A stretch of DNA of 64,000 nt from a virus, in IMG/VR virus record IMGVR_UViG_3300045988_135886. One strand, written 5' to 3'. The position numbers were made by a program, and so were the translations under genes. Positions 12,708 through 33,727 of this stretch are shown here, piece after piece; the stretch's first letter is position 1, and each line of letters opens with the position of its first letter. A model generated the notes under the pieces. It was not told the origin of the DNA and did no database searches. It saw only the letters and a program-made list of their open reading frames with translations.

Positions 12708-13130
12708 TTAAACTTCATTTAATTCATCTCTCACTCTCATAAGTATCTTCCCAAGCCTATTTTCACCAACTCCATCTACAGTTCCCCAAATAGTGTCTCC
12801 CCAAGTATTACCCTCTTCCAAATATTCATCTCCTGTAGCAAGTAATTTTTCCTTAAGGTCTGGATTCTGAGTGAATTTAGCCAGTACGATTTCATACATT
12901 ACTTTATCTTTCACTTCTTCCCAATCTGATCTCAAATCAATCTTTCTACCTGCTGCCTTTGCCTCTGATGGGCTAGCTTGAGAAAATAACTGGAATTTTA
13001 GTCTACGATTTTTTGTTTTCTGTGCTTGAAAAGCTGCTTCATTATTTGTATAGTCCCATCCGTTATAACTTACCGGTGCCATATAAAAGTTACTTAAAAA
13101 GTAATAATCTCCAGTAAAACTATTAATCAT
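12708..13130 (-). CDS. NADAR (YbiA/DUF1768) domain protein
   Basis: YYFLSNFYMAPV...NNEAAFQAQK...GDTIWG; ATG 13130 behind AAGGAAGGA. Confidence 0.75.
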   Translation of the reverse strand: MINSFTGDYYFLSNFYMAPVSYNGWDYTNNEAAFQAQKTKNRRLKFQLFSQASPSEAKAAGRKIDLRSDWEEVKDKVMYEIVLAKFTQNPDLKEKLLATGDEYLEEGNTWGDTIWGTVDGVGENRLGKILMRVRDELNEV

Positions 13131-13143
13131 TCTTTTTCCTTCC

Positions 13144-13326
13144 TTAATAATCACTACAAGTTACTGTCAAACTTACAAATCCATCATTTTGCTCAAAAGA
13201 TGTAATAAGCTCATCTTTTACCAATTCTTCTACTATATCTCTGTCAGTTATTTTTGTTCCAATTAATTCAGGATCAGTCAAGTTGTATTCAGCTTCTACA
13301 GTGATCACTCTTTTTGTTGGTATCAA
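13144..13326 (-). CDS. Hypothetical protein, start uncertain
   Basis: The frame stays open upstream into the tRNA-like element. The only canonical start is TTG 13326. Confidence 0.35.
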   Translation of the reverse strand: MIPTKRVITVEAEYNLTDPELIGTKITDRDIVEELVKDELITSFEQNDGFVSLTVTCSDY

Positions 13327-15733: not shown

Positions 15734-18355
15734 TTAGTTACTTCCTTTCTTACAAATTGCTTTTCTAATCCAATCTACAGGCACAACCATAAATGCTGTC
15801 ACTAAGACTACAATCCACTGTTTAGCATCCATTGGAGTTGTCTGTACTAGATTTCCTACAAAGTTACACAAAACTACAGTCATTGCAAAAATACCCAATG
15901 CGATATACACAAATAATTTGTTATTTTTAATTCCTTTGAAAAGATTCATACTATCTGTTCTAATAGTGAATCCATTAAATACTGCCATTAGACACAATAA
16001 AGCGAATCTCGCTGTCATAGCCGAAAGTTTTGTTGTAAACATATTTCCAACTGGACCAAATGTAATTACACCAAATAAAGCAATAAATACAATTGAACTT
16101 AATGCAATTCTCCCTTTCGCTCCACGGATAAATAATCCGGATCCTTTCATGATAGGCTCTTCATTCATATATTCCTCTTTTGGCGGTTCTCCACCAAAGC
16201 TTAATGAGTTAAGTGAATCCATGATGATATTTACAATAAGGATCTGAACTGCTGCTAATAGAGCAGAGCCACCAGAAATAATTGGAAATACCATACTTAA
16301 GATCAACAACGAAATATTGATAGGTAGCTGGAATTCAAGGAACATCATAATGTTATGCATAAATGTTCTACCAAGTTCGACTGCCTTTACCACACTTGCA
16401 AAATTATTGTCTGTCAAAACAATATCTGCTGCTTCTTTTGCTACATCAGATCCGTCTTGCATTCCAAAGCCTACATCTGCTTTCTTTAGTGCAGGAGCAT
16501 CGTTCACACCGTCTCCGGTCATTGCCACAGACATTCCAATTTCTTGCGCTAATGTTACAAGACGAAGCTTCGTATTCGGTGAGCATCTGGAAATTACTCT
16601 TAACTGTGGAATAATTTCTTTTACTTTTACATCTGACATTGCCTCAAACTCATCATTGGTAACTGCTAAGTCTCCAGGCTTATAAATGCCAGCTTCCATA
16701 GCAACAGCCTTAGCAGTCTCCATACAGTCACCAGTAATTTCAATTACCTGAATTCCAGCTTTATGAGCAATTTTTACTGCTTCTGGAACTTCATTCCTAA
16801 CCGGGTCAACAACTCCAATGACTCCAAGGAGATTCATTTCATCGGGGAGACCATCATCAGTTTTATCTGAGATAGTCAATGCAATACATCTCATTGCCTT
16901 CTCTGTCAATCCCTTAATATGGCTCTTTAAAGCTTTTCTTTTTTCTTCTGTCAGCTCAGTTGCAATGCCATCATTATCAAGATAAAATTTACACTTCTCA
17001 ATTAATTTCTCTGGTGCGCCTTTATAAACAGTAAAATCATTTGCTCCATTATTTAAAGTAACTGCAGAGAATTTATTTTCACTACTAAATGGAACACGTT
17101 TTTTCATGATAGCTTTATTCTGTATTTTTTGTGCATCTTCAGGAGAAAGCATATCAAGCACTGCTCGATCAATTGAATTGCCACCAGTGATATTCCCATT
17201 AGAATCAAACACTGCACTATTATTCATACAAATGTTTAAATCAATTAGCTCGTTGAGCGGACTTTCCTTATTAAAAATATCCTGACAGTTACCGTTAATC
17301 ATAACTGTAGAAGTCATTTCACCTGTTGTGAGAGTTCCTGTCTTATCCGTACAAATTAAATTAACATATGCCAATTCAGGAATTTTACCAGTATTCTTCG
17401 CAAGAATATTGAATTTTTCCATTGTCGATACATTCTGTTTAGTTACAAGTTTTACAATGAGTGGCAGACCTTCCGGTACAGCCGCAACAATAATTGTTAA
17501 TGCATTTGAGATATTCTGTGCTACTTTCTGAATATTTTCAAGAATGTTTCCTGAGAAATACTGACTTAAACTTCCAGCATTTAAGATACCTGTAATTGTC
17601 ATAATTACAAATGCTAATACTGCCGCAATTGTTCCCCATTTTGAAATAAAATCACACAAATGATCCAGAGCAATATCAAGAGCTGTCTTAGGAGGCTCTA
17701 AAGTCTGCATTTTGACAAGAGTATCACCGTTAACTGTATTAACACCAACATCTGTAACAATCATTTTTCCTTCACCAGACATAATAACTGTTCCTGCAAA
17801 GAGCGAACACTGATCCGTATATGCAGCAGTAGATGTTGTTTTAACATGCTTATAATTAGCACTAGGAATTTTTCTACATTCTTTTGTCTCTCCATTGATA
17901 GCGGCATTATTAACAGAAATTTCTCCTTCAACAATAAAACCATCTGCAAAAATCTCTTGTCCAGTTCTCAATAAAACTAAATCACCTACTACCAGATCAT
18001 CTTTATTAATTGTCTGTACGCTTCCATCTCGAACAACATCACAATATCTAACTGCCGTTTTTGCTCTTAACTCTGCTGCAGATTTCTGTATTCCTAGACC
18101 TGTCTTAACAGCAATTTCAGTAACAATAGCTAAAACTACTATAATCATTACAGGTTCAGAAAGAGCCATTACTCCCATAGCTCCTAGAACTAACTGGAAT
18201 AAAGCAATTATTATTAGAATCATAGTAATTGGCTCAGTTAATGCTTCCTTAGCAAAATGATACCATTTTTTCAATTCAGGTTCCGGAAGCTTATTACTTC
18301 CATATGTAGTCCTACTAACCCCTACTTCGCTACTTTTTAATCCATTAAAATTCAT
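15734..18355 (-). CDS. P-type ATPase, Ca2+-transporting (type II-like)
   Basis: 873 aa; phosphorylation site ICTDKTGTLT, hinge MTGDGVNDAPAL, TGE-like loop, about 10 hydrophobic segments. Confidence 0.9.
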   Translation of the reverse strand: MNFNGLKSSEVGVSRTTYGSNKLPEPELKKWYHFAKEALTEPITMILIIIALFQLVLGAMGVMALSEPVMIIVVLAIVTEIAVKTGLGIQKSAAELRAKTAVRYCDVVRDGSVQTINKDDLVVGDLVLLRTGQEIFADGFIVEGEISVNNAAINGETKECRKIPSANYKHVKTTSTAAYTDQCSLFAGTVIMSGEGKMIVTDVGVNTVNGDTLVKMQTLEPPKTALDIALDHLCDFISKWGTIAAVLAFVIMTITGILNAGSLSQYFSGNILENIQKVAQNISNALTIIVAAVPEGLPLIVKLVTKQNVSTMEKFNILAKNTGKIPELAYVNLICTDKTGTLTTGEMTSTVMINGNCQDIFNKESPLNELIDLNICMNNSAVFDSNGNITGGNSIDRAVLDMLSPEDAQKIQNKAIMKKRVPFSSENKFSAVTLNNGANDFTVYKGAPEKLIEKCKFYLDNDGIATELTEEKRKALKSHIKGLTEKAMRCIALTISDKTDDGLPDEMNLLGVIGVVDPVRNEVPEAVKIAHKAGIQVIEITGDCMETAKAVAMEAGIYKPGDLAVTNDEFEAMSDVKVKEIIPQLRVISRCSPNTKLRLVTLAQEIGMSVAMTGDGVNDAPALKKADVGFGMQDGSDVAKEAADIVLTDNNFASVVKAVELGRTFMHNIMMFLEFQLPINISLLILSMVFPIISGGSALLAAVQILIVNIIMDSLNSLSFGGEPPKEEYMNEEPIMKGSGLFIRGAKGRIALSSIVFIALFGVITFGPVGNMFTTKLSAMTARFALLCLMAVFNGFTIRTDSMNLFKGIKNNKLFVYIALGIFAMTVVLCNFVGNLVQTTPMDAKQWIVVLVTAFMVVPVDWIRKAICKKGSN

Positions 18356-18357: not shown

Positions 18358-19389
18358 TTAAATCTCTCCTAATACAATTCTTTCATTGACAGACATTACA
18401 AACTCTTCTATAGCTTTATAATTTGGTTTATCAGGCAATGAGGTATTCTTTGAATCATACTCAAGTCTTTTCTCTAACTCGTTTACCATTTCAAAAAATT
18501 CTGGGATAGGCTGACTGTTTGCATCCAAATATTCTCCATTACGTAGAGCCATAAGAAGCTCATGATCATCTTCTCTATATGTAATAATTTTGCCTTTTTC
18601 AAGAATATCAAAACACATAAGATACAATCTCACTAAATGGCACATATGCTTTCCTAGCTTATTATGTTCTATGGCATGTCTGTTTCTTTTTCCAACTTTA
18701 GAGTAATCCTTAACAATATTTTTCATTTCAGCCCACATCCCCTGATAATCATTCAAAGGATAGTGCTTCAACTGGATATCCATAAATACTTCTGTTTCAT
18801 AATCTTCCTGAATACCTTTATCTACATAAAGCTTTATTGCATCTTCTGGAAAATTGAAATACTTTTCAGGGAAAGTATAAAAAGCATTCATAATACTATT
18901 AAGAACATGCTGCATTCTTTCTTCTTGCCCTAGCTTTCTAGCAGCTTTATTATCAAGCCTTCTTAGCTGGCTTGTAGCATAGCCTCCAAAAGAATAGATC
19001 GCTTTCTTAGATAAAAACATTTCAGCATTATCAAGAAGTTCTTGACCAATTGGATGAATATAAAGATAATGTTCCGGCTTCAATCCTATCAGCTCAATTG
19101 TGTTTGGGTTGCAGTTTGACAATAGAGTTATCAATTTATTAAAAGAATAGATTGTTGTATCTGTTGTTTCTTCCGTTACCTGATCAAAATTATGTGTAGG
19201 AATCAGGATTTCTTCTCTTTTATTTAAAGCACAACCCCTAATATCCAGATCGGAGCTTTCTGTATCTGTACCATAAGCATGAGACCCACCTAAGCCTAAT
19301 AGAATTATGTTGCTCCCCAGGTGCTCGTCCGCTCTTAAGAAATCATAATGTTCACTTTTCAACAACTTCTTGATTTTCTCTATCTTCAT
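18358..19389 (-). CDS. Pol-beta-fold nucleotidyltransferase (RlaP/PF10127-like)
   Basis: GLGGSHAYGTDTESSDLDIRG (GS...DxD). ATG 19389 behind AGGAGAA is preferred over the track TTG 19392. Confidence 0.65.
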   Translation of the reverse strand: MKIEKIKKLLKSEHYDFLRADEHLGSNIILLGLGGSHAYGTDTESSDLDIRGCALNKREEILIPTHNFDQVTEETTDTTIYSFNKLITLLSNCNPNTIELIGLKPEHYLYIHPIGQELLDNAEMFLSKKAIYSFGGYATSQLRRLDNKAARKLGQEERMQHVLNSIMNAFYTFPEKYFNFPEDAIKLYVDKGIQEDYETEVFMDIQLKHYPLNDYQGMWAEMKNIVKDYSKVGKRNRHAIEHNKLGKHMCHLVRLYLMCFDILEKGKIITYREDDHELLMALRNGEYLDANSQPIPEFFEMVNELEKRLEYDSKNTSLPDKPNYKAIEEFVMSVNERIVLGEI

Positions 19390-19870
19390 CAATTTCTCCT
19401 GTTGAATAATAATAATTTACTATATCGTCTAAGTTCCTTATCTCTTTTTCTAACTCTGCACACTTTTTCTTGCTATCACATGCCCATAACTGTTTTCGTA
19501 GCTTCGTTGCAACCTCAGATACCTTTTCTGCTTCTTCTGTTTTATCAATGGTTTCTATGACATCAACTTCAATTGGTTCTCCGCAAAATGGACAGAATTT
19601 AAGAGGGTAATAATAGTCTTCAGGCCATGTATCTTCCCAGTCTTGGACTTCTTCGCTTACGTAAAAGAAAATTCCAAAAGTTTCATCAGTTTTATAGTCA
19701 CAACCATGGCATTCTATAGTTTCACAAGTTCTACATAAATAGTTATCAGGATATTCATTAGAAATAACTATCCTAGGATTCTCTTCCAATGCTTTGCAAC
19801 AGAATTTAGGTTTATAATATTTATAAGATGTGCTCCTATCTACAATTATTTGCTTTGCTTTTATTTCCAT
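19352..19870 (-). CDS. Cys-rich (multi zinc-ribbon) hypothetical protein
   Basis: CCKAL, CRTCETIECHGC, CPFCGEP; acidic C-terminus. Confidence 0.55.
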   Translation of the reverse strand: MEIKAKQIIVDRSTSYKYYKPKFCCKALEENPRIVISNEYPDNYLCRTCETIECHGCDYKTDETFGIFFYVSEEVQDWEDTWPEDYYYPLKFCPFCGEPIEVDVIETIDKTEEAEKVSEVATKLRKQLWACDSKKKCAELEKEIRNLDDIVNYYYSTGEIDEDRENQEVVEK

Positions 19871-19879: not shown

Positions 19880-20263
19880 TCAGATAATCTGTAAGTTTTC
19901 ATCACCAATAAGCCATGCAGAATCTAAAATAAAATTTTCATATGGATCACCATTGTCATTCCAGAACTCATCCGATCCAACCTCCCAATCGCCCAATGTT
20001 CCAGCATTAAAGTTACCGTATAAATAATCTGCCACATATTCTAAAAACGCATCTGCAGCCTTATCATAATCTTCTTTTCTTATTAACTCTTCTACATCCG
20101 GCTCAAGATCAATCCATTTATGCTGTTCAATCAAAAAAGATTTAGCGTTGTCTCTTACTTTCAGCAGTGAGTTTTTAATGTCTGTCAATGTTGCATCTTT
20201 CTTTTTTGCAATGATATAACTTGAAGACGAACTATTAGTAACAAATCCTCTTCTTATTTTCAT
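19880..20263 (-). CDS. GFVTNSSSSS-motif family protein (paralog 1)
   Basis: N-terminus MKIRRGFVTNSSSSSYIIAKK; acidic remainder. Confidence 0.7.
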   Translation of the reverse strand: MKIRRGFVTNSSSSSYIIAKKKDATLTDIKNSLLKVRDNAKSFLIEQHKWIDLEPDVEELIRKEDYDKAADAFLEYVADYLYGNFNAGTLGDWEVGSDEFWNDNGDPYENFILDSAWLIGDENLQII

Positions 20264-20658
20264 TAACCATCTCTCCCTTCTCCTTCAGCAACTTCTATAT
20301 CAGCAAATCCATTTACTTCCGTAATAGCATCTATTGCTTCATTCATAGAGAAATCATAATCATATACAGCATCACCCCATTCATCATAATAAGCATCGTT
20401 CCTGTCCTCAATTACGATATATTCTCCATCAGGGTGCTTTTCTAAAATGTCATCAACTCCATAAATGACCGCTCCGCACCAACTAGCACCAAGCTCACCG
20501 GACCAGTTTCTTTCATCATTTACACCAGTGACATCTAATACATCAAGATTGAACTGATCAATTATCTTCTGAGCTTTTTCTTTGTCAGCAATCCTTGCAA
20601 AGCAAATAATGAAACTGCTAGAGCTTGAATTAGTAACAAATCCTTTCCGTATTTTCAT
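20263..20658 (-). CDS. GFVTNSSSSS-motif family protein (paralog 2)
   Basis: N-terminus MKIRKGFVTNSSSSSFIICFA; acidic; SD AAAGGAGGG. Confidence 0.7.
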   Translation of the reverse strand: MKIRKGFVTNSSSSSFIICFARIADKEKAQKIIDQFNLDVLDVTGVNDERNWSGELGASWCGAVIYGVDDILEKHPDGEYIVIEDRNDAYYDEWGDAVYDYDFSMNEAIDAITEVNGFADIEVAEGEGRDG

Positions 20659-20860: not shown

Positions 20861-22009
20861 TTACATGTCCTCCATTGAATAAATTACTCTTTCTAAACTT
20901 CTTTTTGATTTGAAACACTTCTTAAGTAAACACCACATAATGGCTTTTTCAGTATCATCTTCGTCTTCCCAATCATTTAAGACTACAGAAGTCTGTGTTC
21001 CATCTTTGAATCCTACAGTAGTTCTAATTTTCCCTGTAGCAATATCTTTTGTTCTTCCTACAAATGAAATATCATCTTTAGACAATGTTTTATAAACACG
21101 TTTATCAAAATCATCTTTAGATATAATGTATACATCAACGCCTAAAGCCTCTTTAATTTGACGTTCACAGCTCCTAAACTCTTTATCGAGTGCATGCTTA
21201 TGATTAATAGTTTCTTGAGCCTTCTCTAAAGCTACAGCAATATCTTCTGGTGAGCAACAATATGTCATATTATTATCCTCCTTGTAATTGAAATACGGCA
21301 TTGGTTTCATTTTAAACTTATTTTTTGTATGTAAACGATCAATCCGTCTTTTAATTTCCGGATCATCGCAAATACCTGTACGAATATATCTATCTAATAC
21401 TGCATAGGTAAATCCGAAGTTATCTTCATCTGATTTACCGCATAACCCATCTGATGGTGTTTTCTCTACATATTTTTTAGGTAATCCTAAGTAATAACCG
21501 ATTCTTTTTACTTCACTCTTTGTGAACTGTGCCAATGGAGCAAAGTCTCCTGCTGAGTCACCATATCTAGTGGAGTATCCGATGTAATCCTCACTAAGGT
21601 TACATGTATTAACCACTCTTCCATTGTGTGACTGCGATACCCCGTATAGAGTGGCCATTCTTAGTCTAGGAGCGAGATTAATTAATGTCTGATCTGTTAC
21701 ATTAAATGCAGCATCAATTTGATCAATAATATCATCATAAGCTGATCCAATATTAATAGTAAGATAATCAATGTTTAATACATGCTGGCAAATATCATAA
21801 GCCACACAAATATCATCCTGTTTATAATTTGGCATAATTACTCCAAGAACCTTGTCAGCTCCAATAGCTTCTACACATAACTCAGCAGCCACTAAAGAAT
21901 CAACACCACCGGAGATACCTACTATAAAATTACATCCTGGGCCGTTCTCTTCTCTCCAATCTCTAATCCACTGAATACAATCATTTGTTGCTTTTTCTAC
22001 ATTAAACAT
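20861..22009 (-). CDS. nadE: NH3-dependent NAD+ synthetase (NadE) fused to an unknown ~135-aa C-terminal domain
   Basis: PP-loop GISGGVDSLV, SDEDNFGFTY region. There is an internal in-frame AAGGAGGATAATAATATG near 21270. Confidence 0.75.
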   Translation of the reverse strand: MFNVEKATNDCIQWIRDWREENGPGCNFIVGISGGVDSLVAAELCVEAIGADKVLGVIMPNYKQDDICVAYDICQHVLNIDYLTINIGSAYDDIIDQIDAAFNVTDQTLINLAPRLRMATLYGVSQSHNGRVVNTCNLSEDYIGYSTRYGDSAGDFAPLAQFTKSEVKRIGYYLGLPKKYVEKTPSDGLCGKSDEDNFGFTYAVLDRYIRTGICDDPEIKRRIDRLHTKNKFKMKPMPYFNYKEDNNMTYCCSPEDIAVALEKAQETINHKHALDKEFRSCERQIKEALGVDVYIISKDDFDKRVYKTLSKDDISFVGRTKDIATGKIRTTVGFKDGTQTSVVLNDWEDEDDTEKAIMWCLLKKCFKSKRSLERVIYSMEDM

Positions 22010-22502
22010 TCTGCTCCTCCAATTTCCACAATTCTACTTTAAAACTACTTAATTCTTCTTCTATAATCTTATAAACCACTTCCCAGTCTGCTCCTCCTCT
22101 TCCGCAGCCTATTTTGTATGGGAGTGCAATGGTTGTCTTATGAGGCCTGTTATCAGCATCAAACCAATAAACAGGTATTTGTTGTTGAATGAAATTTAAT
22201 CCTTCTCGAAAAGCTTTAACATCAGTATATTGTTTCCCATCATATTCGTATTTATCTTGTGCAAATAAGGATAATATTCCTTGATTTTTCCTTCTGATAA
22301 AGTATTCGTCATATGTTCCAAGAAGTAATTCTGGATTAAACTCACGTAATTTACAGACGTTTCTATAATGTATATAAATACCTTCGTCATAATCTCTTAA
22401 TGCTTTAGCAACTCCAGTATTCATTTTTCCTTGGCAATTAACTTGATGAATTATATAGTCGGTCTGCGCATCTACAATGTTACCTTCAATAATTTTAATC
22501 AT
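22002..22502 (-). CDS. Macro domain protein (ADP-ribose binding/hydrolase)
   Basis: ATG 22502; IIEGNIVDAQTDYIIHQVNCQGKMNTGVAKAL ... IGCGRGGADWE. Confidence 0.65.
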   Translation of the reverse strand: MIKIIEGNIVDAQTDYIIHQVNCQGKMNTGVAKALRDYDEGIYIHYRNVCKLREFNPELLLGTYDEYFIRRKNQGILSLFAQDKYEYDGKQYTDVKAFREGLNFIQQQIPVYWFDADNRPHKTTIALPYKIGCGRGGADWEVVYKIIEEELSSFKVELWKLEEQNV

Positions 22503-22512
22503 AAATCTTTTC

Positions 22513-22920
22513 CTATAAATCCTGAAATGTAAACTTCTCGCCACAGGAGCAAATCACTTCTCCAATAGTTCCTATTGATGTTGGTGTAAAGCACCATGTA
22601 AGAGAACCGCCTATGCAACCATGTCCCATTGCTCTCTGTTTAGAAGTTTTCAGACCATGTTTCTCAGCATCATGTTTTAATTCCCACTCTCTGATTTTCT
22701 CTTGTTCTTTTTCTGAAATTGGAAATCCTCTATATAAATCGTCTTTTGCTTCTTTTAACTCAGCTTCCATTCTTTGCATTTCAGAATCTTTATAATGCTC
22801 ATCTTTGAGCTTCTTGTTTTCTTCTTCTAAGTATTTAATTCGTTTTTCATAAGTGTCTACTTTATCAACAATCCCCTGACAAAGATCTGAAACTGAATCA
22901 GTAAAATATGTACTACTCAT
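22513..22920 (-). CDS. Coiled-coil protein with C-terminal Cys/His cluster
   Basis: 135 aa, heptad-rich N-terminal half, HGCIGG...CSCGE. Confidence 0.5.
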   Translation of the reverse strand: MSSTYFTDSVSDLCQGIVDKVDTYEKRIKYLEEENKKLKDEHYKDSEMQRMEAELKEAKDDLYRGFPISEKEQEKIREWELKHDAEKHGLKTSKQRAMGHGCIGGSLTWCFTPTSIGTIGEVICSCGEKFTFQDL

Positions 22921-22937
22921 TTTTTATACCTCCATAT

Positions 22938-23411
22938 CTACTCCATAAATGATGAAACATGTACGGTTACAAAATCACTATGTGCACGAATATAATCCAA
23001 AGTTTTAACTGTATCTTCTACAATTGCAATCTGAGATGGCTTAAGTCCGAGCTTTTGTTGCAGCGTTTGAAGCACAGTAAGTTTTTCTGTCTTTTCTAAA
23101 GTGAAATAGATATTATCATCTGGCAGATCATAATTGTCTTTTATAAAAGCTCTTTTACCAGGAATTTCATTTAAAGGACTCTTTGAACAGGTATATACTT
23201 TATTCACGCCTTTATTCTGAATAAACTCCTGCATTAATTTGATCGGACGCACATCTTTATACGGATTCTCACCGGAAGCTACAAGTCTGTCCCATTCATC
23301 GTCAGTCATACTATGACTTAATTCAGAAAACTCATACGGAGCAAGTACTCCATCTACATCCATTACTACAATCACATCATCTTTTAATAAATAATCTGTA
23401 ATTTTACTCAT
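22938..23411 (-). CDS. HAD-superfamily phosphatase-like protein
   Basis: VVMDVDGVLAP (DxDxV nucleophile motif); 157 aa; overlaps the NAMPT-like stop. Confidence 0.5.
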   Translation of the reverse strand: MSKITDYLLKDDVIVVMDVDGVLAPYEFSELSHSMTDDEWDRLVASGENPYKDVRPIKLMQEFIQNKGVNKVYTCSKSPLNEIPGKRAFIKDNYDLPDDNIYFTLEKTEKLTVLQTLQQKLGLKPSQIAIVEDTVKTLDYIRAHSDFVTVHVSSFME

Positions 23412-24879
23412 CTTTGTTTCTTCCGTTTAATCTGTCTCTGATTTCTTTAAATATTTCTGTATGATATATTTCACCGTCTTTAAATACAGTTTTTAATGCC
23501 CCATCATAAACAAAGCTGTCATATCCATCTCTGCACCTTAATTCTCCATTTTCATCGTAATATACATGACAACATCCTTTATGAGATTTCTTTAAATGGC
23601 TTACATCTGTCTTTGGATCTTTGTAAATCATAATCGGTTGTCCGTTAACTTCTCCAAATGTAGCTTTCATAGCAATGCCGAACATATCTCTGGTTACAAC
23701 GACCATACGTCCATCAGGTTCTACAACTGCCGAGAAACAAAAAGCCCCAACTCCAAATACAATGTTGTTTGCAGCGAATCCTTTCTTCTCAAGTTCTTCC
23801 CATACCTTTTTTACATTGTTAAGAGTACAGCCATCACCATAGATAATTCCAATATGAGGGTCCAGTACTTTGTAACCTTTGCTATTTACTGATCCTTTAA
23901 ATGTATTCCAGAGTTTTTCGATAGTCTTAACTGAAATCTCTACCATATCACCAGAATCCGGACGAACCAAGAGCTTACCATTGTGCTGCATAATTTCTTT
24001 TTTGCAAGCTGGAAGAATATTGTCAATCATGTTCCAGTAATCATATGTATCAGATACCATGCTGAAAGATGCATTCGGATATAATTCTGTAAGTAGTCTT
24101 TTCACAAATGTAATTTCGTCTCCGTCCACAGCATAATTTGAAGCCATGACCGCATGTTCGGTAGAAATCGCACCAATTCCAATATGACTCACGCTACAGT
24201 CATTGAAATAATATTTGTCCAAATAATCAATTGCCGGGATCGTACTTGTCTTATCAAAGGATAATAGCCAAGCAACGGAGCATCTCTCTGCTTCTTCCAT
24301 ACAGGACATTCCACGCATTCCAAAGTCTGAGCAGGCCATTTCAGGTCTTAAAATGTCGTCGCAGGTCTTTTTATAGTAGAAATTTGCCAGTTCTCTGTAC
24401 ATATGTCCAATTGTTGCATGAGCACACGGCTTCCAAAGCTCAACCTGCAGAATACACTCAATCCACTGCACAACCCATGCAAAATCTGGATGTGTATTCG
24501 TGATTTCAATGCATGGCACTCCCATAGGCACTAATGTACCTTCCGGCAATGCACGGATCTGAATCGGAAGATACCCTAATTCGTGAAGTTTAAGGATTGG
24601 AGAAATATCGTAATTTCCTTCTCCTAACTGAATGTCCATACTAATTGTATAAAGTTCTTGAACTTCATCAGTGCTTAATTTAAAGAAATCTCTTTTAAAA
24701 TATGTAATAAGATATTCTTTAATAAAAGCCTGCAGTCCGAAGAAAACCATATGATCCTGCTCCTTTAACATTGATCTTCTCGGAGTCCAATAAGAGACTA
24801 ACTTCGTCAATCCTCTCGGAAACATATTGTGGTGTACTTGTTTGTAAGTATCGCTTAACAGAATTGCTAAGGTATCCAT
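23404..24879 (-). CDS. Nicotinamide phosphoribosyltransferase family protein (NAMPT/NadV-like or Namat-like)
   Basis: 491 aa; LSDTYKQVH, VSDTYDYWN, LLVRPDSGD, IIYGDG motifs of the NAMPT family. Confidence 0.8.
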   Translation of the reverse strand: MDTLAILLSDTYKQVHHNMFPRGLTKLVSYWTPRRSMLKEQDHMVFFGLQAFIKEYLITYFKRDFFKLSTDEVQELYTISMDIQLGEGNYDISPILKLHELGYLPIQIRALPEGTLVPMGVPCIEITNTHPDFAWVVQWIECILQVELWKPCAHATIGHMYRELANFYYKKTCDDILRPEMACSDFGMRGMSCMEEAERCSVAWLLSFDKTSTIPAIDYLDKYYFNDCSVSHIGIGAISTEHAVMASNYAVDGDEITFVKRLLTELYPNASFSMVSDTYDYWNMIDNILPACKKEIMQHNGKLLVRPDSGDMVEISVKTIEKLWNTFKGSVNSKGYKVLDPHIGIIYGDGCTLNNVKKVWEELEKKGFAANNIVFGVGAFCFSAVVEPDGRMVVVTRDMFGIAMKATFGEVNGQPIMIYKDPKTDVSHLKKSHKGCCHVYYDENGELRCRDGYDSFVYDGALKTVFKDGEIYHTEIFKEIRDRLNGRNKDE

Positions 24880-25268
24880 TATTTTTTATCCTCCTCTTTG
24901 TCGTTTACAACTTTGTCAATCTGGTCAGTAATATAATCAACTACATCTTTGCCGGTTTTCCCAATCGCTTGTATATTATCTGTAGTTACATTATCTAATA
25001 CAATCATTGTATACATTGTGTCTTTCGATGGAATTACTGTAAAAAGTAAACTACTAATACAAAACCAAATAATCGATTTCTTTAAATACTTTTTGCATTT
25101 AATAATTAAATTATCATCTATATTATATCCCATAAAACATGAAAACCGAATAATTAACAAAACCACTATTGCACATCCAAGTGAAAACAATACAACACTA
25201 AGCAATACATTTAAATTATCAAACAAATTAATCAAATAAATCAACCAAGGGTTAATAATTGGTTTCAT
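24879..25268 (-). CDS. Membrane protein (129 aa)
   Basis: Three hydrophobic segments, acidic/basic tail; TAATG junction with the NAMPT-like gene. Confidence 0.55.
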   Translation of the reverse strand: MKPIINPWLIYLINLFDNLNVLLSVVLFSLGCAIVVLLIIRFSCFMGYNIDDNLIIKCKKYLKKSIIWFCISSLLFTVIPSKDTMYTMIVLDNVTTDNIQAIGKTGKDVVDYITDQIDKVVNDKEEDKK

Positions 25269-25383
25269 AGTTTCTCATCTCCTTTATAATTTTATCAACT
25301 TCATATTCTCTTAAAATATCATCCACATCTTCTGTATGAGAATATCTATTAATGTATCTATATGTAGCAATTTCATAATCCAT
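25252..25383 (-). CDS. Possible small ORF (43 aa)
   Basis: Not in the track. ATG 25383 lies 4 nt after the upstream TGA. MDYEIATYRYINRYSHTEDVDDILREYEVDKIIKEMRNYETNY. Overlaps the next start by 17 nt. Weak SD. Confidence 0.3.
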   Translation of the reverse strand: MDYEIATYRYINRYSHTEDVDDILREYEVDKIIKEMRNYETNY

Positions 25384-25387
25384 TGAT

Positions 25388-25594
25388 TCAATCTTCCCAT
25401 TTGTATGTTTCTGTACAGTAATCTGGTAATTCTCTTAATGGACATAATTTAGGAATCGTTGAATGTTCTTTCCTTTTTAAAGAATTAATGTATTTATTTA
25501 ATAATTGGCAATAATATCCATACGTTTCTAATTCTGAAAATGGGCATTCGTCACATGAATTAGGTTCTTCTATAATCAACATAACTTTACTCAT
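25388..25594 (-). CDS. Small Cys4 protein
   Basis: CDECPF...YYCQ...LCPL; 68 aa. Confidence 0.5.
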   Translation of the reverse strand: MSKVMLIIEEPNSCDECPFSELETYGYYCQLLNKYINSLKRKEHSTIPKLCPLRELPDYCTETYKWED

Positions 25595-25646
25595 TATTGC
25601 TTTCTCCTGTAATTTCTCTTAAGCAAATACTTATATCATCTAACCT

Positions 25647-26450
25647 TTATCTAAACCTCTCAATCAGTTCAATCTTAGGACTTTCCAGATTTGTCAGAAT
25701 CGTATCTGTCGTATAAATCTTCTCAATCAATCCATTGTTTTTCAAAAGCTCACCGTCATAAATCGTGTTCTCGCAATGAGTTACATAGAGATAAATCTTA
25801 TTCACTCCTGCTTCTTTTAGTTTCTTAGCACTATAATAAAAAGTACCGCCTTTGCTGCAGATATCATCTACAATAAGGATATCTTTACCTGGTAACTGAT
25901 CAATTTCACCTGATAAATCTAAACCTTTAATCTCTCCAGTTTCCCAATCTCTATTCTTAATACCAAAAGTATATGGAAGATGTACTGCTGAAGAATATCG
26001 CTTCATGGATCCCGCATCCGGATAAAACATCATAAGATTATTACTCGCAATCTTCTTAACAGTATCCTCAATCATTCGATTCGGGGATTCTACATGTACT
26101 TTATTAAATAATGCGGCAGATACATCAGAATGCGGATCTAAAACTTCTACTCTTCCAAAATGTAATGAATTAATAGTCTGAGCAAAATATTTTAAAGTAA
26201 ATAATTCGTTCTCATGTTTAACTCGGTCCATACGTGCATCTAGGATATAAGGCATATATAAATTAGGCACTACTCTATGATCCCAACAATATCTAGTAAT
26301 ATATTCAACTGCTGTTAATTCTTCCATTGATTCAAAGAACCATTCAATATTATCTCTACTCCATCCACCGATGGGTGGGAGATTCTTAAATAAAAATGTC
26401 CCATCCGGATATTTATCAAGTTTGATTTCTACACCGTTTAATTTAATCAT
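25647..26450 (-). CDS. Ribose-phosphate pyrophosphokinase family protein (Prs-like or Adps-like)
   Basis: YPDGTF, MPYILDARMDR, VLDPHS, YPDAGSMKRY, PRPP-loop ILIVDDICSKGGTF, TTDTI; 267 aa. Confidence 0.75.
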   Translation of the reverse strand: MIKLNGVEIKLDKYPDGTFLFKNLPPIGGWSRDNIEWFFESMEELTAVEYITRYCWDHRVVPNLYMPYILDARMDRVKHENELFTLKYFAQTINSLHFGRVEVLDPHSDVSAALFNKVHVESPNRMIEDTVKKIASNNLMMFYPDAGSMKRYSSAVHLPYTFGIKNRDWETGEIKGLDLSGEIDQLPGKDILIVDDICSKGGTFYYSAKKLKEAGVNKIYLYVTHCENTIYDGELLKNNGLIEKIYTTDTILTNLESPKIELIERFR

Positions 26451-26805
26451 TCCAAATCTCCTTATAGTTTATTTCTCGCTGATCAATGATGTTATCTCTT
26501 GTAAAAACAATCTCAAAATCTGAAATCTGCTTTGTACCAACTAACTGAAACTCATAAACTTTATATCCAAGTTTCTGAAGTTCAAGAACGTCAGTAAGGC
26601 TGAACCAGTGTTTTAATGTTTCCTTTGATGGTGCTGCTGAGAACCACTGTTTCCCACATTCTCTGTATAATTCACTATCTTCCATTGGCAGGTTTCTACT
26701 CAATCCTTCTGAGAGCTGGTCAAATACAGGATTCCACGTTCCATCAAAGTTTCTCCACAGTCCATGTTTTTCAGCCTGATCTTCTACTCTATATCCGAAA
26801 ATCAT
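26443..26805 (-). CDS. Hypothetical protein coupled to the Prs-like gene
   Basis: 120 aa, SD AGGAGAAAAAA, 8-nt overlap with the Prs-like start, no motif recognised. Confidence 0.55.
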   Translation of the reverse strand: MIFGYRVEDQAEKHGLWRNFDGTWNPVFDQLSEGLSRNLPMEDSELYRECGKQWFSAAPSKETLKHWFSLTDVLELQKLGYKVYEFQLVGTKQISDFEIVFTRDNIIDQREINYKEIWND

Positions 26806-26881
26806 TTTTTTCTCCTACTACATTAATCCGCATCAAATCTTTGTGTTACTTTAACTTGATTAAATTAATCCACCTTATCCT

Positions 26882-27343
26882 TTACTTATGCTCAATATCA
26901 CAGGTAGTTATTACAGACGGATTATTCAAATGATTACCATTGCAGAAATTATTAATAAAATCCACCTGTCTTTGAAAGTAATCAATAGATTCACATAATG
27001 AAGTTTTCGCTTCGCTTAATAATCCTGCGACAATTGTACTAATCTTAAACAGTTCATTTTCTTCATCATCATATTCAATACCATCTGCATGATTAAATGG
27101 ACAAATCATCCCCTCATTTCTACATATAATAAAATCACCATTCTTTTTATAGATTGAACAAACTAAAATATCATCGTCATAATGTCCATCAAATTCCAAA
27201 ATCTGCAATGTTTCCACATCATTTTTTGTAACGATTTTTGTTGTGATTGTTTCATCACAATCATTATCATATAAATAATTCTGAATATCCTCTAATGTAA
27301 TTTCTTCTAATTTCTTCATTTCCACAGTATTTTCTCCTACCAT
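26882..27343 (-). CDS. Hypothetical acidic protein
   Basis: 153 aa, starts 1 nt after the PncA stop, no motif recognised. Confidence 0.55.
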   Translation of the reverse strand: MVGENTVEMKKLEEITLEDIQNYLYDNDCDETITTKIVTKNDVETLQILEFDGHYDDDILVCSIYKKNGDFIICRNEGMICPFNHADGIEYDDEENELFKISTIVAGLLSEAKTSLCESIDYFQRQVDFINNFCNGNHLNNPSVITTCDIEHK

Positions 27344-27344
27344 C

Positions 27345-27893
27345 TTATTTCTCTCCTATCACATTAATCTGGCAACTTTTCATCACTTCTAAAGCTGCTT
27401 TATGCTTCTCCGGTGAAGTCCCGGCACAGCATGACGCATCAACTGTAATTTCTATATCCGGATAATGTGTTTTTAATACTAATGCATTAGTTACTACACA
27501 GATATCTGTGCATACACCAATAATTTCAACATCATAACAACATATCCAATGGCTTATATTCCATCTATATCCAAAAGTATTTTTAGGATAAATCTTTTCC
27601 ATTGTTGAAAGTTCAACATTTAATTCTGGAATAATTTCATAGCCAGAAGTTCCTACAATACAATGTGACACTGGAAGTTTTTTGCCTTCTGGTGTTTCCA
27701 AATAATCATCGTAATGAGTATCAGTTGTAAAAATAATCACATCATCTCTTGATCTATATTCTTCCACTTTTTTCACTATATTCGGTACAACTGCCTGAGC
27801 TTCCGGTGTACCTAGCGAACCTGTCACAAAATCATTCTGAACATCAATAACAATCAAAATTTTCTTTTTATTTTCCACAAGTACTACCTCCAA
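27345..27893 (-). CDS. pncA: Nicotinamidase (isochorismatase family, PncA-like)
   Basis: ILIVIDVQNDF, TTDTHYDDY, VSHCIVGTSGYE, catalytic Cys in GVCTDICV. Start is either TTG 27893 or GTG 27878 (behind GGAGG). Confidence 0.75.
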   Translation of the reverse strand: MEVVLVENKKKILIVIDVQNDFVTGSLGTPEAQAVVPNIVKKVEEYRSRDDVIIFTTDTHYDDYLETPEGKKLPVSHCIVGTSGYEIIPELNVELSTMEKIYPKNTFGYRWNISHWICCYDVEIIGVCTDICVVTNALVLKTHYPDIEITVDASCCAGTSPEKHKAALEVMKSCQINVIGEK

Positions 27894-28467
27894 CAGTCAT
27901 TCTCCCGAATGGGTACTCTACAACTCTATAGCTACAAAGAATCTCCATTTCTTTAACAACGTCTCCTTTACACATCTCTAATAAGACACCAACTTCTTCT
28001 GCTACTTTTTTAATTTCAACTTTTTTCTCTTCTGCTGAACTTAAAGTAATAGTTCTCATTCCTCTGGTATAATCAGAAGTCATATCATAAATATTATTTG
28101 GTATTTCAACTTTAAACCCGGCATCTTTTAGATCATTCATATGTAAAATTAAATCATGAGTATACTCATCTTCTGCAAGCAATTCCATTAATTTAATTTC
28201 AGCTTCCTTATCAATCTTTTCAATACTTCTTTTCTCCCAAAGTTCTATAATTGACATATCATTTTCCTTTCTTGTAAAATTATCTAGCTCATTTTCTTTA
28301 AAATAAAAATCTCCTTCTTCTGATTTTTCGTTGTAATAACTAGAGATATGTATTCTTATATTGTTAGAATAAACTGTTTTTACAATACCTGTAGCGCCTG
28401 TAATATCATATTGTTTATATTTTTTAGGCACTATTATTACTTGTACTATATCTCCTACTTGAAACAT
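27868..28467 (-). CDS. Hypothetical protein with SH3/KOW-like N-terminus
   Basis: ATG 28467 behind AAAGGAG (MFQVGDIVQVIIV...). The track extension to 28530 runs into tRNA-Leu and is rejected. Confidence 0.6.
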   Translation of the reverse strand: MFQVGDIVQVIIVPKKYKQYDITGATGIVKTVYSNNIRIHISSYYNEKSEEGDFYFKENELDNFTRKENDMSIIELWEKRSIEKIDKEAEIKLMELLAEDEYTHDLILHMNDLKDAGFKVEIPNNIYDMTSDYTRGMRTITLSSAEEKKVEIKKVAEEVGVLLEMCKGDVVKEMEILCSYRVVEYPFGRMTVGGSTCGK

Positions 28468-28491
28468 TTTTAACTCCTTTCTATTTATTAA

Positions 28492-28573
28492 TCCACCCAG
28501 AGAGACTCGAACTCTCACGCTATTAAGCATTAGAACCTAAATCTAACGTGTCTGCCAATTCCACCATGGGTGG
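28492..28573 (-). tRNA. tRNA-Leu (anticodon UAG), long variable arm
   Basis: Minus strand CCACCCA-TG-GTGGAATTGGCAGACAC-G-TTAGA-TTTAGGT-TCTAA-TGCTTAATAGCGT-GAGAG-TTCGAGT-CTCTC-TGGGTGG-A; full cloverleaf; no encoded CCA. Confidence 0.85.
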
Positions 28574-30154: not shown

Positions 30155-30270
30155 TTAACTTCTCGCTTCCTTAAGTAATTCTTTTGAATTTTCATCATCT
30201 AATTCAAGTTCTCGCTTGTTTCTTTTTGAAACTCTACAGCCTATAAAAGTCACTCCTTCGTCAGGAGAAA

Positions 30271-30344
30271 TGGAAACTCTGGGACTCGAACCCAGGACCG
30301 ACCGGTTATGAGCCGGTTGCTCTAACCAACTGAGCTAAGTTTCC
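30271..30344 (-). tRNA. tRNA with anticodon CAU (elongator Met, or Ile2 if lysidinylated)
   Basis: GGAAACT-TA-GCTC-AGTTGGTTA-GAGC-A-ACCGG-CTCATAA-CCGGT-CGGTC-CTGGG-TTCGAGT-CCCAG-AGTTTCC-A. Lacks the initiator features (1:72 mismatch, GGG/CCC anticodon stem). Confidence 0.85.
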
Positions 30345-30768
30345 ATGTAGTGGGTGTTATAATTACACCCACAATATAGAAATGTAACAATATCTGTAAA
30401 AAACTTGCTTATGCAATCGTGTCAGTTACACGAACGATCGTCATCACTCTCAAAAGCCCTCCCACATTATTTCTACCTCACTGACTCAATTACTTTTTTT
30501 GCTTCATAACTAATCTACACATCTGCTTAACCAGATCATCCTCCAACTTCCCACTTACAACCTCATTAGCACAAAGCACATCTATATAAATGTTTTGTAC
30601 ATCCAAACCATTGCTACCAATGCACTGTGTTCCCTTTCTCGAACAGGTTCCAGTTATTAAACCATCCAAATTTTCACTTAAGTTTTATCTATGTTCGCCA
30701 TGAACATAAGTAGGTATACCTTAGTTCTATTGGTTACCTCTTTGGCCTTCAGAGCTAACTTAGAACTA

Positions 30769-30840
30769 CGGGGTAGATGGGATTCGAACCCATGAATGCA
30801 GCAGTCAAAGTGCTGTGCCTTACCGCTTGGCCACTACCCT
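30769..30840 (-). tRNA. tRNA-Gln (anticodon UUG)
   Basis: AGGGTAG-TG-GCC-AAGCGGTAA-GGC-A-CAGCA-CTTTGAC-TGCTG-CATTC-ATGGG-TTCGAAT-CCCAT-CTACCCC-G; A1:C72 is unpaired; discriminator G. Confidence 0.8.
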
Positions 30841-32018: not shown

Positions 32019-32924
32019 TCAATGCCCTTTAACATCTGCTTCATGTAATAGCATCACATCTGAAAACATCTGTTTTCCAATTAAATACTTATCTTTATTC
32101 TTTGCCTTGTTTGATTGTGACCATGATAAATAGGGATGCATATGATAATAAATCAAATTTGCTGTATAAAAAGCATCATATATATCTTTTCCTGTAAGTG
32201 CACCGGAAAAATCAAAACATGTTAAACATTCATAAGCTCCAACACAATGATGCTGATAATAGTGACAGTAATCATCCTCTTCACCTTTTCCATTAATTCT
32301 TGATTTAGTGAAAAGCTTTCCAATATCATGGAGACAGGCCGCCACCCATAAATTTTTTTCTTCTCTAGGTACTCCTTCTGAAACCTTTTTCAAATGTTTA
32401 TAAAGAGTAAGAGAATGATGTGGATTCTCTTGATCGAAGTCACGAGCCATATCTATTAATTCTTTTATATCTTTATGATCATCTTGTACAACTCTAATTT
32501 CATTGAACCCTTCATGGTACATTGGTGGAGAAAATACTTTCCTCATTCTTGTAATCACTTCGTCTGGAACTGAATTTTCCCTTTTTGAGTTGTCCTTTAA
32601 ACATTTTTCATACGTTTTCAAAAACATAATACATGTTTTATAAACATGTTTAGGAACTCCTTTTAAAAAATGCACTCTTCTTTTCTTTACCAAATTAGTA
32701 GCATCATAAATAACCGAATGCATTTTCAAATCTTCCAGTATTCTACGATGCAGTTCTTCAAATACTTTACTGTTGTCTGCGTCATCATAATTATCTCCAT
32801 ACATTTCTTCTCTGAGTTTATCAGAAGAGTGCACTATATAATCAGGATGAGTTTCTGAATACTCTTTAGCCCATGTACTTTTACCGGAAGCAGGTAAACC
32901 TACCAGCATAATTAATTCATTCAT
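32019..32924 (-). CDS. P-loop (polynucleotide) kinase fused to an HD phosphohydrolase domain
   Basis: ATG 32924 (TAATG junction); MLVGLPASGKSTWAKEY Walker A; C-terminal AACLHDIGK / HHCVGAYE HD ligands. Confidence 0.65.
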   Translation of the reverse strand: MNELIMLVGLPASGKSTWAKEYSETHPDYIVHSSDKLREEMYGDNYDDADNSKVFEELHRRILEDLKMHSVIYDATNLVKKRRVHFLKGVPKHVYKTCIMFLKTYEKCLKDNSKRENSVPDEVITRMRKVFSPPMYHEGFNEIRVVQDDHKDIKELIDMARDFDQENPHHSLTLYKHLKKVSEGVPREEKNLWVAACLHDIGKLFTKSRINGKGEEDDYCHYYQHHCVGAYECLTCFDFSGALTGKDIYDAFYTANLIYYHMHPYLSWSQSNKAKNKDKYLIGKQMFSDVMLLHEADVKGH

Positions 32925-33559
32925 TATGTAATCTCCTCTATTTCTTTGCAAATCTTCTCTGCTATTTCTTTAGATATGTACTTCTGATTAAAAAACTCTT
33001 GTCCAATATCTGATCTAATTCGATATTTTTGATTATCTAAATTAGGCCTCCCTTCCCCGTTTACAATTTGAGGTAATGAAGCTGTCTGAAGATAATCTAT
33101 ATAATATAGATCTTCTTTTATACTTCTTCGTTTCTCTCTAATTGCTTTTTTTATTTTATAGGCCCAATATCCAGAAGTAACATTCAGTTTATTAAATTCT
33201 ATATAGTGATCAAGATCCTGAGATATAAGCTCCAGTTCCTTTAGCTGTTTTTCTAAAGGTTTTCTATTACCTAATATTTCTTTAATAGGCAATATGCTGT
33301 CATCTATTTTCTTTTTATAATCACCAATCTCTACAAGAGATTTATTCTGCTGTACAAAACCAACTCTCTCATCAACTGATGTTACTTTCCAAGGGGCGTA
33401 TATGCTTAAATTTTTAGGAATTGTTGATATCCTGTTTAAAGCTTTCGGTACATTGTCAAACTTCTGAGCAGATTTTAAATCCACCACATGAGGAGGACTT
33501 CCATGTTTAAACACCAAATAATTTCCAGGATATTTTTCACTTTCTAAAACATATCTCAT
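32924..33559 (-). CDS. Hypothetical protein, first gene behind the tandem promoters
   Basis: 211 aa, SD AAAGGAAGAGGAAA, no motif recognised. Confidence 0.6.
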   Translation of the reverse strand: MRYVLESEKYPGNYLVFKHGSPPHVVDLKSAQKFDNVPKALNRISTIPKNLSIYAPWKVTSVDERVGFVQQNKSLVEIGDYKKKIDDSILPIKEILGNRKPLEKQLKELELISQDLDHYIEFNKLNVTSGYWAYKIKKAIREKRRSIKEDLYYIDYLQTASLPQIVNGEGRPNLDNQKYRIRSDIGQEFFNQKYISKEIAEKICKEIEEIT

Positions 33560-33675: not shown

Positions 33676-33727
33676 AGTATACCATAGTCATTCTACCTTG
33701 TCAACACTTTTTTTACAAACTTGTTTA
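33676..33727 (-). promoter_or_regulatory. Second tandem sigma70 promoter plus 18-nt box (copy 3)
   Basis: Minus strand TAAACAAGTTTGTAAAAAAAGTG-TTGACA(33704-33699)-17 nt-TATACT(33681-33676). The box lies inside the last codons of ligA. Confidence 0.6.

Follow-up and report, generated by a model that had tools for sequence, protein, structure and literature searches.

A viral stretch of 64,000 nucleotides (IMG/VR record IMGVR_UViG_3300045988_135886; its full length is called the window below) carries a tightly packed minus-strand operon for the metabolism of nicotinamide adenine dinucleotide (NAD+). Its six NAD-related genes encode a PncA-type nicotinamidase, an ADP-ribose (ADPR) pyrophosphokinase of the Adps family, a NAMPT-like transferase of the Namat family, a HAD-fold phosphatase, a macro-domain protein and an NH3-dependent NAD synthetase, NadE (Table 1). 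Comparison with other phage loci indicates that the operon is probably a form of NARP1, a phage pathway of NAD+ reconstitution, altered to run through deamidated intermediates; it would rebuild NAD+ by way of nicotinate and nicotinate adenine dinucleotide (NaAD). The Adps, Namat and macro-domain part corresponds to known biology, and the deamidated route with PncA and NadE would be the new part.

In the proposed scheme, a host NADase defence would split NAD+ into ADPR and nicotinamide, or would release ADPR-1''-phosphate (ADPR-1''P) in the case of aRES. Judging by homology, the macro-domain protein would convert ADPR-1''P to ADPR, Adps would turn ADPR and ATP into ADPR pyrophosphate (ADPR-PP) and AMP, PncA would deamidate nicotinamide to nicotinate and NH3, and NadE would make NAD+ from NaAD, ATP and NH3. 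The new step, proposed from pocket changes and gene linkage, would fall to the Namat variant, which would join nicotinate to ADPR-PP to give NaAD and pyrophosphate (PPi). The NH3 released by PncA is a co-substrate of NadE, and the scheme balances by textbook reaction stoichiometries. On balance we favor a broader proposal in which Namats with Ser or Ala at one pocket position would make NaAD and PPi in a single step without passing through nicotinate mononucleotide (NaMN), a reaction undescribed in NAD metabolism. Together with PncA, Adps and NadE, such enzymes would constitute a fourth phage NAD+ reconstitution pathway, dominant in phages of human-gut Clostridia and interchangeable in its slot with phage Preiss-Handler salvage.

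The strongest evidence for this proposal is a linkage between two residues of the Namat pocket and the presence of PncA and NadE. IMG/VR was scanned with PncA, NadE, the window Namat and the Namat of Bacillus phage SPbetaL1, and 221 loci were searched by tblastn. Dozens of independent viral contigs from the gut, 85-250 kb long, proved to carry the same gene set, a recurrence which shows that the genes have not come together by chance. A total of 186 Namat homologues of at least 380 aa were aligned, and the 176 near-full-length sequences (at least 440 aa) formed 54 clusters at 90% identity. Where position 215 is Asp or Glu, PncA and NadE lie within 10 kb in none of 27 clusters. Where the position is Ser, as in the window ('FDKTSTIP'), both genes lie within 10 kb in 16 of 16 clusters, and where it is Ala ('FLNTATVP') the count is 11 of 11; PncA and NadE share an operon with Adps and Namat in all 27 Ser/Ala clusters. 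The association has an uncorrected Fisher p of 1e-15, a value that overstates independence because a neighbour-joining tree places all Ser/Ala-type Namats in one deep clade. Position 242 behaves in the same manner, being Ala in 27/27 Asp/Glu-type clusters vs Ser in 27/27 of the Ser/Ala type, and the two positions are among 24 that cleanly split the groups. Selection bias from PncA-based retrieval was considered and rejected, since ten Ala-type loci retrieved only by similarity to the SPbetaL1 Namat, and not through PncA, show the same linkage.

The minimal core, PncA-Adps-Namat-NadE, is contiguous and co-directional, spans as little as 2.8 kb from start to start, and accepts macro, NADAR and HAD genes as optional inserts. 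It occurs in seven gene orders and persists at divergence down to 33-50% identity. Seven bacterial genome contigs carry the same Ser/Ala pocket, most with PncA and/or NadE nearby where the contig allows, and one of them is a likely prophage in the cultured isolate Ruminococcus sp. AM36-2AA (L229, QTYB01000001), where a module copy 76% identical to that of the window lies inside a 499-kb scaffold. Matches to Adps occur in about 1,500 of the 50,697 GenBank phage records, but matches to PncA in only 14 and to NadE in only 39. Two of the GenBank sequences have the orders PncA-Adps-Namat-x-NadE (Phage Phass-1) and Adps-Namat-Macro-NadE-PncA (scaffold MT835544). The Phass-1 Namat falls in the Ser/Ala clade, and a 307-aa Phass-1 protein labeled 'hypothetical' is an NAD synthase (Pfam, 7e-45). 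The Ser/Ala Namat clade is almost absent from cultured-phage genomes, on which the first NARP1 study was based.

In the SPbetaL1 Namat structure, the nicotinamide pocket consists of F189, R192, D215, A242, R306, D13' and Y15', and D215 hydrogen-bonds nicotinamide (PMC12774641). Alignment equates D215 with D219 of human NAMPT and Ser212 of the window protein (nt 24244-24246), and A242 with human A244 and window Ser239 (nt 24163-24165). The window enzyme resembles NARP1 Namats in keeping the catalytic His (H242) and most pocket residues (D, Y, F, R and R), and differs from them in having Ser in place of both the nicotinamide-binding Asp215 and Ala242. Human D219 is described as the determinant of substrate specificity (PMC7096376), and PMC4919578 reports that D219S 'switches the substrate affinity' and that D219A abolishes activity. 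The human D219S enzyme (Khan et al., 2006, as cited in PMC4919578 and PMC7096376) thus has Ser for Asp, as the window protein does, at the position in contact with the nicotinamide amide group. It is, however, an engineered point mutant that uses phosphoribosyl pyrophosphate (PRPP), whereas the phage enzymes are natural, bear a second, Ala-to-Ser, change and are expected to use ADPR-PP. The switch in the human enzyme reportedly goes towards nicotinic acid.

The enzymes on either side of the proposed transfer step have the features expected of their families. PncA is most similar in the PDB to the pyrazinamidase/nicotinamidase of P. horikoshii (1ILW, 2e-13) and contains the catalytic motifs VIDVQNDF, YPKNTF and GVCTDICV and the metal-site motifs TTDTH...SHC. 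By alignment to 1ILW and motif position, D17, K104 and C132 of the catalytic triad and D58, H60 and H78 of the metal site are all in place. An isochorismatase-family protein other than a nicotinamidase was rejected as an identity for PncA, given the nicotinamidase triad and metal site and the best PDB matches, which are nicotinamidases. NadE matches TIGR00552 (8e-48) and the structures 3FIU, 2E18 and 3P52, has an SGGxDS motif at aa 31 and is without a glutaminase domain. Its C-terminal ~140 aa have no family match; this extension is found only as a fusion and only in the window lineage, and its single-sequence structure model (pLDDT 54) is too poor to interpret.

The remaining core pair is of the NARP1 type, its closest characterized counterpart being the experimentally validated pair of SPbetaL1. 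The window Adps is 41.5% identical to the SPbetaL1 Adps (E 1e-45; the second-best tblastn match among the GenBank phage records), and its best E-value against solved Prs structures is 2e-13. It contains the motifs ARMDR, DPHS and IVDDICSKGGTF. At 267 aa it is shorter than the chains of solved Prs structures (284-335 aa), and PRPS has a C-terminal alpha11-alpha12 module that is reportedly missing from the Adps family (PMC13586617). In the TIGR01251 alignment, Adps residues 65-256 correspond to model positions 86-278 of 309, with ~20 residues missing at the N-terminus and ~20 at the C-terminus; the short length is consistent with the truncated Adps family, with the short end too unclear to confirm loss of alpha11-alpha12. 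The window Namat is 40.6% identical to that of SPbetaL1, whose crystal structures 9W5X and 9W5W are its best PDB matches (3e-110, compared with 1e-55 for human NAMPT). Adps and Namat lie on the same strand, two small open reading frames (ORFs) and 768 nt apart; NARP1 pairs are defined as lying within ten genes. The arrangement is thus like NARP1 of Bacillus phage SPbetaL1 and E. coli phage Bas63 (Osterman et al., 2024) in that a PRPS-like Adps stands near a NAMPT-like transferase and ADPR is the presumed input, and unlike it in that PncA and NadE are obligatory operon partners in the window clade and the predicted transferase product is NaAD, not NAD+.

The initial annotation had assigned the Prs-like and NAMPT-like genes to NARP1 rather than NARP2 and had reported that the window lacks an NMNAT, and both statements are supported. 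Pfam scans of nearly all ORFs of at least 60 aa, tblastn with six NMNAT/NadD/PncB queries and a motif scan agree in finding no NMNAT, NadD or PncB in the window, beyond which the rest of this phage's genome extends, and the 136-kb genome of Phass-1, which carries an Ala-type module, likewise has no NMNAT or NadD. Phass-1 did give one PncB-like tblastn match of marginal score (E 5e-4), which was set aside since Pfam finds no NAPRTase in the 648-aa protein concerned. The window shares a NAMPT-family enzyme with NARP2 (NAMPT plus NMNAT, as in Vibrio phage KVP40), but no NMNAT was found, and its transferase resembles Namat far more closely and invariably has Adps as a neighbour. NARP3 combines a PnuC-like nicotinamide riboside transporter with a NadR-like bifunctional enzyme, and no PnuC or NadR family match was obtained among the window ORFs.

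A second line of evidence comes from sister phages that encode Preiss-Handler salvage. In 13 loci retrieved through PncA and lacking Adps and Namat, PncB lies between PncA and NadE, and 12 of the 13 also have a NadD or NMNAT-like gene; complete sets occur in cultured jumbo phages as well (Table 1). These modules often include a Nudix gene, and in phage G also KptA. In the Preiss-Handler modules of gut phages, PncA and NadE share 47-62% identity with their window counterparts, no less than the PncA and NadE of other NARP-type modules do, and the window NadE is 47-57% identical to NadE of the NadD-bearing modules. Only part of the Preiss-Handler set is phage-encoded in the window, where PncA and NadE are present and PncB and NadD were not found. 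Since Adps and the Namat variant occupy the slot of PncB and NadD, the simplest reading of the gene content is that they perform the same net conversion, nicotinate to NaAD, with recycled ADPR taking the place of PRPP and ATP. The window operon would be like Preiss-Handler salvage (phage G, Phosso and the gut loci L053 and L059) in its first enzyme, PncA, its last, NadE, and its deamidated logic. It would be unlike it in that Adps and the Namat variant replace the passage from nicotinate through NaMN to NaAD by PncB and NadD, and in that the adenylyl-ribose part would come from recycled ADPR and not from PRPP and ATP.

Several observations weigh against the deamidated pathway. Its basis is comparative and structural, not biochemical, and the counter-defence role is drawn by analogy with NARP1. 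The linkage of the Ser/Ala pocket to PncA and NadE is a single origin retained, not 27 independent events. One locus (L234) has the order Adps-Namat-NadE with no PncA within ~7 kb, so PncA may be dispensable or host-supplied. The effect of the Asp-to-Ser change, a broadened or switched specificity, is known for one enzyme, human NAMPT, and its application to Namat would be an extrapolation. The closest solved NadE is the Francisella enzyme 3FIU. In work by Sorci from 2009, the Francisella enzyme is said to prefer NaMN over NaAD. Finally, the adenine clamp is altered. The Namat selectivity-clamp helix (SCH) has the consensus GSX-Phi-X-Phi-X-Phi-TRD, in which aromatics at positions 3 and 7 stack on adenine (PMC12774641). 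The window sequence departs from this consensus (GAFCFSAV, then the 10-aa insertion VEPDGRMVVV, then TRD), keeping the aromatic at position 3 and having Ala at position 7. An insertion of 9-10 aa and the loss of the position-7 aromatic are common to the whole Ser/Ala clade except Phass-1. Because the clamp motif is degenerate in this clade, the case for ADPR-PP as the substrate draws on linkage with Adps, macro and NADAR genes and not on the published motif.

In one alternative, which we consider unlikely, the operon is a canonical NARP1-AP (NARP1 extended by a macro-domain phosphatase), Namat still makes NAD+ from nicotinamide, and PncA and NadE separately boost Preiss-Handler salvage through host PncB and NadD, giving two parallel routes. 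The homology of Adps, Namat and the macro protein to described NARP1 and NARP1-AP parts agrees with it, as does the locus with no nearby PncA, and a clade of single origin could simply have co-inherited its PncA and NadE. Such parallel routes, however, leave unexplained why the changes at D215 and A242 fall in precisely the clade that is tied to PncA and NadE, and D219A abolishes activity in human NAMPT. PncA would moreover compete with Namat for nicotinamide, and the four genes stay contiguous across deep divergence. That phages without Adps and Namat encode their own PncB and NadD, instead of relying on the host, argues against the window phage drawing on host enzymes for these steps. The initial annotation had placed PncA and NadE outside the described pathways and left open a deamidated branch or a boost to the host route; the linkage to Ser/Ala Namats and the shared PncB-NadD slot now favor the former and disfavor the latter.

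It is rather improbable that the operon is a general auxiliary metabolic module, one that raises NAD+ for replication (for instance for an NAD-dependent ligase) with or without a NADase defence and has no part in counter-defence. The phage does encode an NAD-dependent ligase (33693-35738), and in cyanophages and pelagiphages NadE is found by itself. The Adps substrate ADPR, however, builds up mainly upon NAD+ cleavage, and NARP1, which has the same two core enzymes, acts only after NAD+ depletion (bioRxiv 10.64898/2026.01.28.702374), while a macro/Adpp-type accessory specifically counters the aRES defence. Least probable of all is a Preiss-Handler booster with no ADPR chemistry, in which PRPP would come from the Prs-like enzyme, NaMN from the NAMPT-family enzyme as a nicotinate phosphoribosyltransferase and NaAD from host NadD, with phage NadE acting last: the degenerate clamp that would enforce ADPR-PP selectivity, some PRPP activity retained by Namat in vitro (PMC12774641) and the nicotinate-type pocket changes would all fit it, but validated Adps matches the Prs-like protein far better than any Prs does, the protein is short like the Adps family, most lineages have macro and NADAR genes for ADPR handling built into the module, and the NadD or NMNAT that sister phages' true Preiss-Handler modules encode was not found.

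The deamidated NARP1 variant appears to carry several accessories. Taken as a single sequence, the macro-domain protein has no Pfam match, and a profile of 17 sequences retrieves BT1257 (2e-18), the DarG macro domain (3e-16), the yeast ADPR-1''-phosphate phosphatase Poa1p (6LFU/6LFQ, 4e-13) and also TARG1. A Poa1p-like macro phosphatase, Adpp, is present in 15% of NARP1 operons and turns ADPR-1''P, the product of the aRES defence, into ADPR, in the extended pathway termed NARP1-AP (bioRxiv 10.64898/2026.01.28.702374). The definition of NARP1-AP calls for a Poa1p homologue, a macro protein (PF14519, PF01661 or PF20016 by HHpred), at most two genes from the NARP1 genes. The window operon is like NARP1-AP (Adps, Adpp and Namat, as in Vibrio phage Gary) in having a Poa1p/DarG-like macro domain, homologues of which also occur in the Asp-type canonical NARP1 loci L114 and L117; this likeness is one of family, not of comparison with the Gary protein itself. 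It is unlike NARP1-AP in that the macro gene is third downstream of Namat (directly adjacent in many sister loci) and optional in the Ser/Ala clade, where 17 of 27 clusters have it. That the macro domain feeds ADPR into the pathway, as first proposed for the window, is plausible but not new, having been described as NARP1-AP/Adpp (bioRxiv 10.64898/2026.01.28.702374). Four related loci (L225-L228; 1547-2637 and 2679-2999) encode a 302-aa Macro/Macro_2 protein and L225 also a Tad8-family protein (Thoeris anti-defence), a few kilobases from HAD and PncA; these genomes appear to stack several NAD- or ADPR-directed counter-defences.

The HAD-fold protein has a DxDG motif at aa 17-23, and its gene overlaps the Namat stop by 8 nt. 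Foldseek matches its model to the capless HAD phosphatases MDP-1, a deoxyribonucleotidase-like protein and KdsC (TM 0.5-0.6). The existence of natural Namat-HAD fusions suggests that the phosphatase may act on a Namat substrate or product, and a role as a pyrophosphatase or as an ADPR-phosphate phosphatase is speculation. Divergent homologues have unrelated neighbourhoods in bacteria, and in other phages they lie 5 kb from PncA. Three Namat-variant proteins have additional parts: P0012 (646 aa, from a cluster of 2406 members) is fused to a HAD phosphatase, P0060 (628 aa) to a second, unrelated HAD-like tail, and P0021 (738 aa) has an N-terminal extension of ~245 aa. In the window, 8 kb separates the NADAR gene from the operon, but sister phages have it within the module: between macro (or Namat) and NadE in L016, L031, L060, L081, L082 and L158, or, in L231, immediately downstream of NadE. 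A crAss001_48-related gene (12305-12589; Pfam PF21825, 2.7e-18) adjoins NADAR in the window. HAD, the small membrane protein and NADAR are putative lineage-specific accessories, with ADPR-feeding or undefined roles.

Table 1. Genes and segments of the NAD module in the window, and phage Preiss-Handler modules used for comparison.
Feature	Coordinates	Strand	Match or remark
Operon	20861-27893	minus	six NAD-related genes, tightly packed
NadE, NH3-dependent NAD synthetase, core aa 1-242 plus 140-aa C-terminal extension	20861..22009	minus	Pfam NAD_synthase 1.5e-47 (aa 10-233)
Macro-domain protein, Adpp-like, 166 aa	22002..22502	minus	NCBIfam DarG 5e-13; PHROG 335 'phosphatase' 6e-35
Coiled-coil/Cys-rich protein, 135 aa	22513..22920	minus	no significant family match
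HAD-fold phosphatase, 157 aa	22938..23411	minus	weak sequence matches; AlphaFold2 pLDDT 92
Namat-family transferase, Ser212/Ser239 variant, 491 aa	23404..24879	minus	PRK09198 2e-137; 9W5X 3e-110
SCH region of Namat	23686..23748	minus	GAFCFSAVVEPDGRMVVVTRD; altered, 10-aa insertion
Small predicted membrane protein, 129 aa	24879..25268	minus	PHROG 3878 (unknown function) 6e-17
Small Cys-rich ORF, 68 aa	25388..25594	minus	in some close relatives only, 94-97% identity
Adps, ADPR pyrophosphokinase family, PRPS-like, 267 aa	25647..26450	minus	TIGR01251 1.5e-24, under the model's curated cutoff; PHROG 619 8e-67
Hypothetical protein, 120 aa	26443..26805	minus	PHROG 23161 (unknown function) 7e-15; kept in close relatives
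Hypothetical protein, 153 aa	26882..27343	minus	no Pfam/NCBIfam/PHROG match
PncA-type nicotinamidase, 182 aa	27345..27893	minus	Pfam Isochorismatase 1.2e-25
tRNA-Leu(TAG)	28492..28573	minus	ARAGORN; upstream boundary of the operon
NADAR-domain protein	12708..13154	minus	Pfam NADAR 1.3e-27; 8 kb from the operon
Preiss-Handler modules (PncA, PncB, NadD/NMNAT-like, NadE)	L059 10013-13615; L053 9983-14306		
Further sister contigs with a Preiss-Handler module	L048, L067, L070, L072, L077, L079, L080, L083, L086, L087		
Complete Preiss-Handler set in cultured jumbo phages	Bacillus phage G (L236 1124-8373); Sinorhizobium phage Phosso (L237 2774-8415)		

Profile and structure searches bear out the family calls and positions that the initial annotation gave for the six genes, all on the minus strand, and its report of NADAR and the NAD-dependent ligase near the operon is likewise confirmed. 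Intergenic spacing within the operon varies between -8 and +119 nt, four junctions having overlapping start and stop codons; the promoter and terminator scan was uninformative and gave no convincing terminator inside the operon. The small ORFs differ in how far they are kept. By tblastn of the loci, the 153-aa ORF is retained in close relatives only (77-100% identity), the 120-aa ORF overlaps the Adps start by 8 nt at its 3' end, the 129-aa membrane protein overlaps the Namat start by 1 nt and lies between Adps and Namat in many related loci (39-74% identity), and the 135-aa coiled-coil protein keeps its position between HAD and macro in relatives. Megablast of the 7.6-kb region against GenBank phages gave no match, and relatives are detectable only at the protein level. 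Just upstream of the operon are three tRNA genes (besides Leu-TAG at 28492-28573, Met-CAT at 30270-30345 and Gln-TTG at 30769-30840); a long ORF (27868-28530) overlaps tRNA-Leu, and its real start is probably further downstream.

Elsewhere, the window encodes two tyrosine-recombinase-like proteins (36091-37002 and 38248-39255) and a HicA toxin (40464-40652), which together with the module copy on the Ruminococcus scaffold suggest a temperate phage of gut Clostridia. A membrane- and stress-type cluster unusual for a phage (11156-18355) comprises SPFH/Band 7 (11156-12127), PspA-like (13560-14309), TerD (14309-14947) and vWA-TerF (14965-15732) genes and one for an 873-aa P-type cation ATPase (15734-18355). 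An RNA-repair-like set (6111-7400, 7567-8124, 9275-10120, 18358-19392 and 32019-32951), consisting of an RNA ligase, two metallophosphoesterases, an RlaP nucleotidyltransferase and an AAA_33 kinase with HD, may counter tRNA-cleaving defences; RlaP and kinase-HD genes also stand near the NAD module in the related phages L003 and L225-L228. Five paralogues share the N-terminus MKIRKGFVTNSSSSSF (19880-20658, 43127-43885 and 44728-45455), and two tandem arrays (49887-50979 and 53718-55236) hold at least 10 copies in all of ~95-aa paralogues, assigned to no family, that begin with 'KVGD.V.V..W..M' and end in 'RR'. In other phages PncA also occurs unlinked to NARP or Preiss-Handler genes, as in L063 (9980-13522) and likewise L066 and L068, near a PAPS-reductase-like and a SIR2-like gene (12941-13522); PncA of this type may relieve nicotinamide inhibition of a phage sirtuin.

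NAD+ depletion is among the commonest antiphage strategies of bacteria, and its reversal by phages, through NARP1, NARP1-AP, NARP2, NARP3 and RyDEP, is an active field. The papers describing these five systems do not link nicotinamidase, NAD synthetase or NaAD to phage NAD+ reconstitution, and we found no description linking nicotinamidase, NadE or NaAD to it in the literature searched, a search whose coverage left out most subscription journals. Nor did we find a study that treats phage Preiss-Handler modules as an NAD+ reconstitution pathway. If the deamidated pathway is correct, it would bring new chemistry on the pyridine side, where the known accessories Adpp and RyDEP act on the ADPR side, and it would predict a new enzyme activity, a nicotinate:ADPR-PP transferase, with two specific residues that can be mutated in both directions. 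It would also account for the nicotinamidase and NAD synthetase genes of phages. We can speculate that the route is advantageous because charged nicotinate stays in the cell and nicotinamide diffuses out, because it copes with hosts that deamidate nicotinamide quickly, and because the final step, driven by ATP, renders resynthesis irreversible. In human-gut metagenomes the module is abundant, in phages of gut Clostridia, with protein clusters of hundreds to thousands of members, and the likely prophage copy in a cultured Ruminococcus isolate offers an experimental entry point. The pathway would thereby bear on niacin and NAD metabolism in the gut microbiome, and on phages engineered against NAD+-depleting defences in hosts that deamidate nicotinamide.

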